Shown: in pieces, positions 58,101 to 64,000 of the stretch
Layout: each line of letters opens with the position of its first letter
Numbering within the stretch: the first letter of the stretch is position 1
Assembly: GCF_036507355.1 (NCBI RefSeq)
Contig: NZ_AP027877.1
Source: Escherichia coli
GTDB lineage: Bacteria; Pseudomonadota; Gammaproteobacteria; Enterobacterales; Enterobacteriaceae
DNA length: 64,000 nucleotides
Reading direction: 5' to 3' (one strand)
Made by a program: the position numbers

Positions 58101-61100
58101 CCTGAAAGCGTGCCCGGCGGAAGGTGCAATTATTCAGTATGCCAACGGTATCGTCGACTTCCAGTCCGAGCAGTGCATTGGCTGCGGTTATTGCATTGCG
58201 GGCTGTCCGTTCGACATTCCGCGCCTCAACCCGGAAGACAACCGCGTCTACAAATGTACGCTGTGCGTTGACCGCGTGGTGGTTGGGCAAGAACCAGCCT
58301 GCGTGAAGACCTGCCCAACGGGCGCGATTCACTTCGGTACGAAAGAGTCGATGAAAACGCTGGCGAGCGAGCGCGTGGCGGAGCTGAAAACCCGCGGTTA
58401 CGACAATGCGGGCCTGTACGATCCGGCAGGCGTCGGTGGTACACACGTTATGTACGTGCTGCACCATGCTGACAAGCCAAATCTGTATCATGGCTTGCCG
58501 GAGAACCCGGAAATCAGCGAAACCGTGAAATTCTGGAAAGGCATCTGGAAACCGCTCGCAGCTGTTGGCTTTGCGGCTACCTTCGCAGCCAGTATCTTCC
58601 ACTACGTGGGTGTCGGTCCGAACCGTGCGGATGAGGAAGAGAATAATCTGCACGAAGAGAAAGACGAGGAGCGCAAATGAAACGACGTGACACCATCGTG
58701 CGCTACACCGCGCCGGAACGTATCAACCACTGGATCACCGCCTTCTGCTTCATCCTGGCGGCGGTGAGCGGGCTGGGCTTTTTGTTCCCGTCCTTCAACT
58801 GGTTGATGCAAATCATGGGCACACCGCAGCTGGCGCGAATTCTGCACCCGTTTGTCGGCGTGGTTATGTTTGCCTCGTTCATCATCATGTTTTTCCGTTA
58901 CTGGCATCACAACCTAATCAATCGGGATGATATCTTTTGGGCGAAGAATATTCGTAAGATCGTCGTCAACGAGGAAGTAGGTGACACCGGGCGTTATAAC
59001 TTCGGTCAGAAATGCGTTTTCTGGGCGGCGATTATTTTCCTGGTTCTGCTGCTGGTGAGCGGCGTGATTATCTGGCGTCCTTATTTTGCGCCTGCTTTCT
59101 CAATCCCGGTGATCCGATTCGCGTTAATGCTGCATTCATTTGCCGCAGTGGCGTTAATTGTGGTTATCATGGTGCATATCTACGCCGCCCTTTGGGTGAA
59201 AGGCACGATTACCGCCATGGTGGAAGGATGGGTTACCAGCGCCTGGGCGAAGAAACATCACCCGCGCTGGTACCGTGAGGTCCGCAAGACAACGGAAAAG
59301 AAAGCTGAATGAGTATTCGCATAATCCCGCAAGATGAGCTGGGTTCGAGCGAGAAACGTACGGCGGATATGATTCCGCCGTTATTGTTCCCTCGGCTCAA
59401 GAATTTATACAACCGCCGCGCCGAGCGTCTGCGCGAGCTGGCAGAAAATAATCCGCTGGGTGATTACCTGCGCTTTGCTGCGCTTATCGCCCACGCCCAG
59501 GAAGTGGTGCTGTACGACCATCCGCTGGAGATGGATCTGACTGCACGCATTAAAGAAGCCAGCGCACAAGGCAAGCCCCCGCTGGATATTCACGTTCTGC
59601 CGCGTGATAAGCACTGGCAAAAGCTGCTGATGGCGCTAATTGCTGAGCTGAAACCTGAAATGAGCGGCCCGGCGCTGGCAGTGATTGAGAATCTGGAGAA
59701 GGCATCGACTCAGGAGCTGGAAGATATGGCCAGCGCACTGTTTGCCTCTGATTTCTCGTCCGTCAGCAGCGATAAAGCGCCGTTTATCTGGGCTGCACTG
59801 TCGCTCTACTGGGCGCAGATGGCCAATCTGATCCCCGGCAAAGCCCGCGCTGAATACGGCGAGCAACGTCAATATTGCCCGGTTTGTGGTTCTATGCCGG
59901 TGTCCAGCATGGTGCAAATTGGCACCACTCAGGGTCTGCGTTACCTGCACTGCAACCTGTGTGAAACCGAATGGCACGTAGTGCGCGTAAAATGCAGCAA
60001 CTGTGAACAGAGCGGCAAACTGCATTACTGGTCGTTGGATGACGAACAGGCCGCGATTAAAGCCGAAAGCTGCGATGACTGCGGCACTTACCTGAAAATT
60101 CTTTATCAGGAAAAAGATCCAAAAATCGAAGCCGTAGCAGATGACCTCGCCTCTCTGGTACTGGACGCACGAATGGAGCAAGAAGGCTATGCCCGCAGTT
60201 CCATCAACCCGTTCCTGTTTCCGGGTGAAGGGGAGTAATCTCTGACGTTTTCCGGGTGGCGCTGGTCGCCCGGATTACAGCTCATAGGGTGTGACGACAC
60301 CATCTCTCGTATTCCGCGTTACCACCTCAAGCTATGCCGCCAGTGCCTGTTTTGCCTCAATTTACCCACCCCCACATCAATAAGGTTATGGGTATGAGAC
60401 TGATGATAAGCGTAAGATTGCCTGATGCGCCGCGCTTATTAGGCCTACCAATAAACTGCAATACATTGAATTTATACGACTTTGTAGGCCGGGTAAGGCG
60501 TTCACGCCGCATCCGGCATGAACAACGCACACGTTGTCAGCAATCTGATTGATATCATTTTTTCCCATTACCATTCCTCGCGCAGCTTACGCTGGTATTC
60601 GACACCATCTTCCTCACGCCCTTGCCATATGCCAAAAGCACTGGTTCTTACTGTTTGCGATTGATTTACCAAGTATTGATCTACCGCTTCCCGTAATAGC
60701 TCCGTACGAGGAAGATTACGCTGCACCTCAAGATCATCAAGTTGCTTAATCACCTCATTCGATAAATCGAGTATAATTCTGCCCATATCAATACCTGCCA
60801 GAGAGTTCATAAATATTTGACCAATATCATTTGATATCTATGGAGAGAAAAGTACCCTTGTCGAATCTTTAAAGAAAGCTCATTTACGCATCATTTTTTA
60901 TTTTTGCGAGGCGTTTTCCAGATATGATGTAACAGTTGCAGTTATTATAAGTTCAAGTAAAACAGCCTTGTATTAATACCAGAATAAGGGCATCTGTTTT
61001 TTATATTCAAGAATGAAAAATTTTTGTCATTCCTTATGCTCCTTACACTGATCATCAACACCCGGTGTCTCACCCCTTTGCCTGCCACCCTTTGCTTTAC

Positions 61101-64000
61101 GCACCGGGAATTGCTGACGTTCCAGATATTGCTCTACCGCTTCGCGTAAAATTGCAGATCGTGAAACCTTACGCCAGCCCCGAAGCTTGTTCAGCCGTTT
61201 AATTGCCTCTTCTGATAAATGAAGAAAAACCGTATTCATCGCCATTACCACCACCTTACATATATTACTCATTAATGTATGTGCGAAAATTACGCCGGAA
61301 AATTAATTAACGAAAGCGGATTTTTGCATGTTGTTTTGTTTTTGCGAGACGTTTTCCAGAAATAATAAGAGCGTTGCAGTTGTTTCATTTGTTACTCAAA
61401 AATGGTTTAGTTATCGCCCAGGATGAGTTATGGGTGCTACGAATATATTATATTCAGGGATATTTATTTGCATAATCTGAATGGTGTAGCCGAAAAACGT
61501 CAGCATCCTAACAGCACCAGGATTTAAGGTGAAATTAATCTTCCATCACAGACCTGTCAGTGCTGCCACCAACCGGTCTTTACTTGCTCATCGTTATAAT
61601 TTTGTTGGTAACAGTTCGGGAAACAAGGAATTCCTTCCGGAACACCCCCGGCATCATCCGATAGCATTGACGTCAATCATCGGCTCGACGGTGAGTTTTT
61701 TAATCGCATCATAGGGTGGCAACGTTCAGCACGATACGGGTCATAACAAAACTCCTGAGCAGCGGCACTATGCCGCTTTCACAGGAGTTCTGAATGCTGG
61801 TGCTTTCTGTATGGCTTCGCCATGCCCCTCGCGGCTAAGTGCCTGCACACTTCTCTCTATATTTGATTTTTGCAATGCATTGGCCGAATTCTGATAATCC
61901 TAATGAGTTTTACTCTTCAGACTCCCATCCCTACGGTATACGAGTTAGATTCATGAATGAAATCGACATGTTTAAAAAACGAATCTTGTAAAACATCCGT
62001 GTTGATATTACCTTGCAACCCAACATTGAATTTGTTAGAGACATGAAGAACTCTAATATCAAAAAGGTCTTTTAACATCATTAATTCTTCGGCTGTTAAT
62101 GAATCGCAACTAAAATATCCCTGTTGATCAAAAAGATTTTCTATTTCTCCACTATCGGCGAGGCGTTTTTCAAAGAGTGTTTGCAACATCGAGTTGCCAA
62201 GGACAATGGATATCGTGCGATCTTTCGCAGATTTACACCCCATCACAACGGCAACATTCGTATCCCCCCCAGAAGTTTCATTTATCGCTGTCGCTAAAAT
62301 GGTGGTCAAACACGCAAACGGAACTGTATTTCTTTCGTGATTTAATTTATCTACCAGTTCATTCCATTTATCAAAAGCCGGGCTATATTTGTTGCGCACA
62401 GAAATATCCGACTGGTTAAACAATTCAGCCATGCGATTTTTTATCATCTCGATATCCGGCGAACCAGAAAGACTTTGCGCATAATACGGTCCTGATGATG
62501 TTGCATACATTAAAGCCGAGCCCACACCTGTCGCCATAATGGGTGCAGCCACGGTTTTGGCAAGGGCGACGCTGCGATGGCTATGCGCTTCACAGGCTAA
62601 AGGAACATATTCCACTGACTGCGGTAATTCCTTACATGCCTCCCTCATCATTGCGGTATGCTTTACAAACAACGGTTTTTCACTGCCCAAAAAAACTTTC
62701 TGCTTAATTGCACTAAGAAAACGTAAATCAAAAATGATTGTTTTTGGTTTATTATTTTTTGGTACATTACCTATTATCCCGTTAAGAACCTTCCTTGCTG
62801 CATGGAGATTTTTTTGCACAGCACATAACACAATTGATGAAGTCTTCTCTACTGCATTATTGATTTTAATTTTAAAATCTGCATGATATACGTTGACGGG
62901 CAATGCAAGTATATCTGGACCTACATCTTTGGCTGAGTATTTATTGGTGATCGACGGCCGTGAATCCACTAGAAAACTTAGCTGCAAATTATGCTCTATA
63001 TTACCAGCTGTTTTTGTGGTGTGATTAAACATAGAGATGCCACCTCTCATTCTTTCACACATATCCTCAACTTTTTCACTTCGTTCTTGTGGCAATTTGG
63101 CTTTAACGTTAATTTGATGATTTTTACCCGTGCATTCCTTAACTACAAGGGGAATGTTATCTAAAGTGCCATACAGGCTAATAACGTCACCAGGATTTTT
63201 ATCATGTAAGTAAGTTTGATTAATACTCGAAGCATTCACAAAGAGGTCAATATTATAACTGTTTATAACTTCACCTACATCAAATGTGTAGTGCTTACTC
63301 TGGAGGCTGCCATCCTTATTTAATTGTATATCAATCAATATATCCCCGGACTTTGTCACCATATCTTTGCCATAAACCATTTGCATAGCCATTTCGAGGA
63401 GATTTTTATCTAACTGATTGCGGGCGTTGAGTAAGCGACTACCAAATAATTTATATACTGTTCCCGTCATTGCCAGGGCTGCGCTTTCTGGTACTTTGCG
63501 TTTCCACAGTGAGGTTTCTCTATTTTTAAACAGGTCATATTCATTATTACTCGACAACCATATTTCAGTTCGTTAACACAATGGAACAGTTGTTCCTCAC
63601 CTTCCATTTTAAGGCGATGTGAAAAATCATTTAATAGCGTTTGCTTCGGTGATTCATTACTCATTAGTTGTTTTTCTAAATTAACAACAGAATAACTTTC
63701 TTGTTGAATGAGATTAATATTGACAACCATTACAGCCTCCTTTCCACAGTTAAGAGCAAACATACAACATAATTATTTATAACATCCCGAGCAGTAAATG
63801 AATGATACTGACAATGATGCCAGTCCATTATCTTTGCATAATATTTGTTAGCTATAGATTTTAAAAATATTTATGAGAAAAGTATGGCACCAGAGGGGGT
63901 TTTGACTATCAAAAATCGCTCAAACATGAACTAAGATGATGAATTAAGCATTATCTGCGATAATTGCCATACAGCTCTACAAATAATATTTAAATGCTCC

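Follow-up and report, generated by a model that had tools for sequence, protein, structure and literature searches.

What are the two small genes yiiE and yiiF of Escherichia coli, and what is the block of DNA that both of them carry upstream? The question was raised by a 64,000-nt stretch of contig NZ_AP027877.1 (RefSeq assembly GCF_036507355.1), called the window here, in which the initial annotation had noticed two same-strand genes for 72-aa proteins of the ribbon-helix-helix (RHH) type, each preceded by a conserved stretch of about 45 nt. It had taken them for candidate autoregulated DNA-binding proteins, perhaps antitoxins. The locus is a well-resolved decayed type II toxin-antitoxin (TA) system with a duplicated, partly neofunctionalised antitoxin, a kind of system that is already known. 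We consider it probable that the two genes are what is left of a vapBC module whose antitoxin gene was duplicated and kept a strictly conserved DNA-binding domain, and that the upstream block is an ancestral cis element of its promoter. The features of the locus are collected in Table 1.

That yiiF is the relic vapB antitoxin gene of a decayed vapBC module is as good as certain. In Citrobacter freundii and Salmonella enterica diarizonae, a YiiF orthologue of 80-82 aa is found at the same site, between fabY (yiiD) and fdhE, and is followed with a 1-nt overlap by a gene for a 124-aa PIN-domain protein. A scan for orthologues, in which each species was represented by one genome, returned 36 loci; the YiiF orthologue is followed by this PIN gene, adjoining fdhE, in about 30 species of at least 10 genera, including Citrobacter, Klebsiella, Kluyvera, Trabulsiella, Kosakonia, Lelliottia, Franconibacter, Cedecea, and Pseudocitrobacter. 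The PIN protein encoded beside the YiiF orthologue of Klebsiella pneumoniae is 7by2_B, "Ribonuclease VapC" (E = 4e-78), and YiiF matches the antitoxin chain of the same K. pneumoniae VapBC complex, 7by2_A, with E = 2e-26 and about 70% identity. Since the Klebsiella pair matches both chains of 7by2, the pair formed by the YiiF orthologue and the PIN protein is the structurally characterised VapBC complex (PDB 7BY2/7BY3; Kang et al., J Med Chem 2020, as cited in PMC11117207). Chain 7by2_A, named CopG family regulator, is the closest solved relative of YiiF apart from YiiF itself, the Shigella form of which (PDB 2k5j, 92% identical) has a nuclear magnetic resonance structure. YiiE also matched 7by2_A (E = 1e-7), limited to the RHH part. 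The C-terminal segment of YiiF is near-identical to that of the orthologues that bear a toxin. Within E. coli, strains EC0585 and 2016C-3878 have the gene order yiiE-vapB-vapC-fdhE, and RefSeq calls their VapC a toxin. Among 5426 complete E. coli genomes, vapC is kept at 80% or more in 57 and leaves a recognisable 3' stub in about 650 more, at no more than one place per genome. The earlier suspicion of an antitoxin was thus well founded, as an intact vapC accompanies the YiiF orthologues of other genera and the yiiF of about 1% of E. coli. Of the handful of papers seen to mention yiiE or yiiF, none links either gene to vapBC; yiiF turned up in two screens and is listed among uncharacterised regulators.

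It had also been stated that no toxin-like open reading frame (ORF) follows either gene. This holds for intact ORFs, but yiiF is followed by a vapC pseudogene. The ATG that overlaps the yiiF stop codon is still present, and 60331-60395 holds codons ~9-30. Codons ~31-101 are missing, with a stop where the ends of this deletion meet, and 60275-60330 holds the C-terminal codons and their stop, less 15 nt that were lost in frame. Searches with tblastn using the VapC of six species recovered the remnant as LEVVTRNTRD-----GVVTPYEL* with E values down to 3e-6, and blastn against the intact vapBC of EC0585 gave segments of 77% and 85% that are colinear with the intact vapC. The Rfam matches at the repetitive extragenic palindromic (REP) elements within the remnant, ES036 (60441-60483) and naRNA4 (60487-60523), score near or below their gathering thresholds. 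Because its vapC is disrupted, the window has no functional vapBC module: an antitoxin gene directly upstream of an overlapping PIN gene is absent from it and present in the other genera, in EC0585, and in Escherichia albertii. No other VapC-like sequence or RHH paralogue that could be a distal partner was found in the 64 kb.

Solitary or orphan antitoxins can remain after the decay of a TA system. The substitution patterns suggest that YiiF is such an orphan antitoxin under relaxed constraint: among seven Escherichia alleles, the ratio of non-synonymous to synonymous differences per site (pN/pS) is 0.25 in the N-terminal half of yiiF and 0.71 in the C-terminal half, and the gene is absent or truncated in about 24% of E. 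coli genomes. The persistence of yiiF after toxin loss, its relaxed constraint, and its frequent loss agree with the general concept of orphan antitoxins. The locus goes beyond that concept in that a single species, E. coli, still displays the ancestor in intact form, the intermediate with a pseudogene, and several independent deletions.

The reading of yiiE starts from the duplication. That the window holds two same-strand 72-aa RHH genes was confirmed by the minus-strand ORFs, by Pfam, and by the homology of the two proteins with each other (42% identity, E = 2e-13). YiiE matches RHH_1 (PF01402) with E = 1.1e-11 and 44.6 bits, above the cut-off of 20.5 bits, and YiiF with E = 1.2e-3 and 19.2 bits, slightly under it; orthologues of YiiF have precomputed PF01402 matches. 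YiiE and YiiF share with repressors of the CopG/Arc/MetJ type their family match, their small size, and a beta-strand at the N-terminus ahead of two helices, and differ from them by a C-terminal tail derived from a toxin-binding segment. Both 72-aa starts are internal Met codons of longer minus-strand ORFs (61027-61272 for yiiE, and 60568-60810 for yiiF, where the ATG at 60810 gives 80 aa). In K-12, both genes are annotated with 72 aa and in the same order as in the window, and the closest E. coli matches (98.7% identity) have yiiF, yiiE, and fdhE annotated. The locus is flanked by fdhE (59309-60238, plus strand) and by a strain-variable region that precedes fabY. As had been supposed, gene and upstream DNA were duplicated together, because the whole unit of about 438 nt aligns end to end with its neighbour; a repeat search found a 100-nt repeat at 72% (60847-60946 and 61285-61384). 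The coding DNA of the paralogues is 53% identical, third positions 38%, with a saturated pS of 0.75, and by these values the paralogues are old.

Very probably, yiiE is a selected tandem duplicate of the antitoxin gene together with its 5' region. It was not found outside Escherichia and Shigella in the orthologue scan and the protein searches. In Escherichia whittamii, yiiE lies directly behind the block, a LexA box (CTGTATGAATGTACAG), and the remaining first ~8 codons of a divergent esterase gene, and other genera have exactly this combination as the 5' flank of vapB. Given that flank, the upstream copy (yiiE) inherited the ancestral 5' region, and the downstream copy (yiiF) kept vapC. Codons 1-51 of yiiE show no non-synonymous against 94 summed synonymous differences among the seven Escherichia alleles (pN = 0, pS 0.124); in the tail (codons 52-72) pN/pS is 0.46. 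The YiiE tail is divergent and varies within the species. The beta-strand that reads DNA is GRILLDL in VapB orthologues, GRIILDL in the YiiF of the window, and NTVFLHL in all YiiE. Selection pattern and changed beta-strand together suggest that YiiE is maintained as a DNA-binding protein of altered specificity whose tail is dispensable, and most likely it now represses its own promoter, and possibly other targets, as a stand-alone RHH protein. In published data, yiiE was induced 2.5-fold on SlyA overexpression, is flagged as bound by H-NS, and is a SlyA target by genomic SELEX (systematic evolution of ligands by exponential enrichment). A weak SELEX peak of the RpoS holoenzyme lies in the spacer between yiiD and yiiE, about 740 nt from yiiE and away from the block.

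The two copies also recombine. Protein searches returned natural chimeras with the N-terminal domain of YiiE and the C-terminal half of YiiF, joined at the shared LREAV-QYL core, and one of them, in E. albertii, has an intact PIN vapC directly after it. There, a DNA-binding domain of the YiiE type and a 5' region of the yiiE type serve an apparently complete TA module. In Nissle-type E. coli (locus L044, ~3000-3090) and in E. whittamii (locus L039, 3300-3392), yiiF was lost by the same deletion, which joins the block (…AACGCCTCGC; …CTCGC) at a short microhomology to vapC codon ~106 (GAAATACGAGAG…). As this deletion leaves the block in place in both, the block outlives the gene behind it.

The conserved block itself was confirmed, to within a few bases of its first placement, with 35 of 43 positions identical between the two copies in the exact register of 438 nt. 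Its 22-bp core is TCTGGAAAGCGGCTCGCAAAAG. The 20-mer TGGAAAACGYCTCGCAAAAA occurs exactly twice in the window with up to three mismatches, against 0.01 occurrences expected, and 20-nt windows within the block have 85-90% identity between the units, which makes the block better conserved than the coding DNA. The initial annotation had allowed that it might belong to an unrelated repeat family. This is not what was found: the block is present in 5411 of the 5426 complete E. coli genomes (at least 95% identity), at a median of 2 and a maximum of 4 places per genome when counted over 5412 genomes. Its core is 100% identical in six Escherichia strains, two of them with yiiF deleted. An alignment of 230 nt upstream of the gene from 27 orthologues and both E. 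coli copies showed three conserved features, namely the LexA box near the start of the divergent esterase gene, the block, and a proximal inverted repeat. The consensus of the block is yTCTGGAAAG-NNN-CTCGCAAAAr, in which only the central 3-4 positions vary across genera. The block is older than the duplication, being conserved in 10 or more genera without a yiiE. A further part, AACTGCAAC (gene strand; 60935-60943 and 61373-61381), is conserved between the units and limited to Escherichia; variants of it occur in E. albertii and in Nissle-type strains, and it was not seen in other genera. The block is non-coding, because the positions that would be wobble positions are invariant in every reading frame. 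A small ORF over it on the opposite strand (MLFCFCETFSR...), in which the central variable triplet falls on one codon, was considered and rejected, as the flanking wobble positions are invariant and the yiiF copy has no start codon. The Rfam scan gave only the REP-derived matches downstream of yiiF and no known RNA family at the block.

Table 1. Features of the yiiE-yiiF locus, in positions of the window
Feature	Position	Strand	Remark
vapC pseudogene	60275..60568	-	protein-versus-DNA search with VapC of six species; blastn against EC0585 vapBC
REP and bacterial interspersed mosaic elements (BIME) within the vapC remnant	60396..60557		interrupt the alignment with intact vapC; Rfam
yiiF	60568..60786	-	72 aa; orphan VapB antitoxin
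Tandem duplication units, two of ~438 nt	60568..61443	-	438-nt spacing and end-to-end alignment
yiiF unit	~60568-61005	-	
yiiE unit	~61006-61443	-	
Decayed vapB-type operator region (candidate), ATATCA-AA-TGATAT	60824..60837		compared with EC0585 (L043) and C. freundii (L002)
-10-like hexamer TACTTT (predicted)	60849..60854	-	48 nt downstream of the yiiF block
Conserved block, yiiF copy	60901..60943	-	core TCTGGAAAACGCCTCGCAAAAA (gene strand), 60901-60922
yiiE	61027..61245	-	72-aa RHH protein; upstream, diverged copy of the antitoxin gene; annotated in K-12 and O157
Candidate yiiE-type operator, ACATACA-N11-TATATGT	61258..61282		directly upstream of Shine-Dalgarno AAGGTGG; read from the sequence
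-10-like hexamer TAATTT (predicted)	61287..61292	-	48 nt downstream of the yiiE block
Conserved block, yiiE copy	61339..61381	-	core TCTGGAAAACGTCTCGCAAAAA (gene strand), 61339-61360

As to what the block does, we lean slightly towards a distal promoter element rather than an operator. The block was present in 27 of the 31 upstream regions examined, and in 25 of the 27 it is followed after 46-48 nt by a TAnn[TA]T hexamer. This spacing holds in yiiE-type, yiiF-type, and orthologous loci alike, although the distance from block to ATG varies (101-107 vs 115-117 nt) and the intervening DNA has diverged. If the hexamer is a -10 element, the block would sit at about -61 to -79 of a weak promoter with a poor -35 region, a geometry that would fit a promoter dependent on an activator or an UP element. 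The block is then most likely the docking site of a host factor, either an activator or the alpha subunit of RNA polymerase, and not a paralogue-specific operator. Among activators and other regulators, comparison, without matrices, with the motifs of CRP, FNR, PurR, Cra, IclR, MarA/SoxS, CpxR, PhoP, SlyA, Fis, and IHF gave partial half-sites that were unconvincing. A sigma-70 promoter within the block was rejected for either strand, since no conserved -10 was seen by eye at a usable spacing and the scan gave no promoter on the gene strand.

Several points weigh against the account given so far. The assignment of the -10 element is based solely on conserved spacing among homologous sequences, which are not independent, and a simple sigma-70 scan returned no gene-strand promoter upstream of yiiE or yiiF. 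In other genera, the block lies about as far, at ~-61 to -81, from the likely divergent promoter of the LexA-boxed esterase gene and may originally have belonged to the esterase. Its halves, CTGGAAAA and CTCGCAAAA, repeat with a period of ~11 nt and might conceivably be RHH sub-sites in tandem. Even in strains without the toxin, YiiF has preserved its C-terminal toxin-binding motif rather well. Finally, YiiE is 42% identical to E. coli YiiF vs 44-57% (over shorter spans) to VapB of other genera, so that YiiE is not clearly closer to E. coli YiiF.

An alternative history, possible but on the unlikely side, would give YiiE an older role. The ancestral locus would have been a yiiE-vapB-vapC module with YiiE as its dedicated transcription factor of new specificity, which stayed on as a host regulator when the toxin disappeared, and the block would be bound by a widely conserved enterobacterial factor that makes expression of this TA family, and now of yiiE and yiiF, respond to a physiological signal. 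Among TA systems, omega-epsilon-zeta and PaaR-PaaA-ParE have three components, one of them a separate RHH or helix-turn-helix (HTH) regulator. The same-strand order of EC0585, with a regulator-like RHH gene, the antitoxin, and the toxin, resembles these systems. It differs from them in that the antitoxin retains its RHH domain and that yiiE has its own promoter region instead of heading a single operon.

Somewhat less likely is the proposal with which the study of this locus began, that the block is an autoregulatory operator bound by YiiE and YiiF, and ancestrally by VapB or VapB-VapC, which would repress their own transcription. RHH antitoxins commonly autoregulate, as is established for type II TA systems; the block is the best-conserved non-coding sequence of each unit, and its two halves can be read as similar and about one helical turn apart. 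However, it lacks dyad symmetry, and one block that predates the duplication is common to paralogues with unlike beta-strands, each of them invariant or nearly so in its own group. It also lies ~75 nt upstream of the ribosome-binding sites, where the paralogue-specific inverted repeats are found. In loci with an intact vapC, the inverted repeat TGATATAC-TGGAG-GTATATATG spans the Shine-Dalgarno sequence and the start codon of the 80-aa form; in the toxin-less window, O157, and K-12, GGAGG and the vapB-type repeat are lost and the block is untouched. For yiiE, the candidate proximal repeat of Table 1 has a perfect counterpart, ACATATA-N11-TATATGT, at the chimeric locus of E. albertii, with the caveat that short AT-rich repeats such as the one at 61258-61282 can occur by chance. 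The block could therefore not be upheld as the autoregulation site of each protein. The operators are more likely these inverted repeats beside the ribosome-binding sites, and autoregulation of yiiE and yiiF as such is plausible.

The block might instead be a site of the divergent esterase gene of other genera and a functionless leftover in E. coli, which we regard as improbable. It does lie between the esterase gene and vapB in those genera, at ~-61 to -81 from the opposite-strand TATAAA and LexA box. E. coli, however, has no esterase gene, yet keeps the block in both units in nearly all genomes at the identity given above, and the fixed spacing to the downstream hexamer is held while the flanking DNA has diverged.

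A sigma-54 promoter, with GG and GC of TGG-N10-GCA exactly in the -24/-12 register, is very improbable and was rejected. CTGGAAAACGCCTCGCA can be set in register with CTGGCACG-N4-TTGCA and with the 17-mers of PMC4591121 Table 1, and the positions that vary between genera fall in the central spacer. On a weight matrix built from 50 published sites from chromatin immunoprecipitation sequencing (ChIP-seq), the block scored only 1.7-6.8 bits, below essentially all real sites (median 14.7, 5th percentile 6.6), and 84-629 positions of the window score as high. No site at yiiE or yiiF is listed in three genome-wide datasets, by ChIP-seq (main tables or supplements), genomic SELEX, and ChIP-exo. The top match of the same matrix in the whole window is CTGGCGCGAATTCTGCA at 58830-58846 (plus strand, 17.9 bits), inside fdoI, and is the published intragenic sigma-54 site IS47.

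That the two blocks are alike through recent gene conversion of one tandem copy by the other instead of selection is barely credible: the copies do recombine, with chimeric genes and inter-unit deletions being common, but the block is equally conserved in single-copy genera, and the conserved stretch is short with diverged DNA on either side.

To return to the relic of a vapBC module with a duplicated antitoxin gene, its history can be put as follows. A chromosomal type II vapBC module between fabY and fdhE has decayed to a relic. An ancient tandem duplication of a unit of ~440 nt, the antitoxin gene with its 5' region, gave yiiE, the upstream copy retaining the ancestral 5' flank and the downstream copy retaining vapC. 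YiiE would have kept its DNA-binding domain, with a changed beta-strand, while its former toxin-binding tail drifted. In this genome, vapC was destroyed by REP insertion and internal deletion; YiiF would have been left as an orphan antitoxin, and its proximal operator and ribosome-binding site would have decayed. The block would be a cis element that goes back to the ancestral vapB promoter region, with a -10-like TAnnTT hexamer following it after 46-48 nt. The closest known system is the VapBC of K. pneumoniae, an orthologous locus (L030) at the same chromosomal site beside fdhE, with a VapB 66-70% identical to YiiF; the upstream block and the TGATATAC...GTATATATG repeat occur there as well. 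Unlike in Klebsiella, the toxin gene of the window is a pseudogene, the proximal operator and Shine-Dalgarno sequence have decayed, and the module is preceded by the diverged paralogue yiiE with its own 5' region; Klebsiella has no yiiE.

The surroundings of the locus gave some further observations. A near-consensus LexA box (CTGTATGGATATACAG) separates the divergent Abhydrolase_3 esterase gene from vapB in E. whittamii and in other genera (~3812-3827 at the C. freundii locus L002, ~3821-3836 at the S. diarizonae locus L004, and 2811-2826 at L039) and adjoins TATAAA on the esterase strand. This suggests that the esterase may be SOS-regulated, with perhaps an SOS input to the TA module. The yiiF unit of E. 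coli has only a degenerate copy, CTGGTATTAATACAAG, at 60967-60982 of the window. In E. coli, comparison at the protein level gave no esterase remnant upstream of yiiE; E. whittamii alone keeps the ~8 codons. Genes for a higB-like toxin and an HTH antitoxin lie between fabY and the esterase gene and vapB in S. diarizonae (L004, 2036-2790) and E. whittamii (L039, 1822-2584). Because this pair is found there, the fabY-fdhE interval is a hotspot for TA modules and small islands; other E. coli strains carry different cargo in it.

The gene just upstream of yiiE in the window (61917-63730, minus strand) appears from its predicted structure to encode a homologue of the SopB/IpgD-like phosphoinositide phosphatases. 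It has a frameshift near 63557-63566, so that, set against the 604-aa form, its first 58 codons are in another frame than the rest. The protein has the motif GCKSAKDRT, of which C, D, and R are invariant in 19 distant relatives, and it gave no sequence match in Pfam, NCBIfam, or PDB. Its AlphaFold model has a mean predicted local distance difference test (pLDDT) score of 85.8 and a predicted template modelling (pTM) score of 0.87, and the best Foldseek match was Salmonella SopB (8jzl_A, E = 4.6e-8, probability 1.0), followed by Fig4, the IP4P domain of P-Rex1, Legionella SidF, and MTMR2. Close homologues were found in Escherichia and Shigella only. RefSeq labels the gene "transposase" or "hypothetical".

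With this analysis, two of the "y" genes of K-12 gain an origin and testable functions, yiiF as a toxin-less VapB and yiiE as a duplicated antitoxin. E. coli and its relatives offer a decay series with the intact module, the pseudogene stage, independent deletions, and domain-swapped antitoxins, one of them with an intact toxin. Such a series is suited to the study of how TA systems decay, how antitoxin halves recombine, and how orphan antitoxins may turn into regulators. The block of ~20 nt, by its conservation across genera and its fixed spacing to the hexamer, is a small and well-defined target for promoter dissection.

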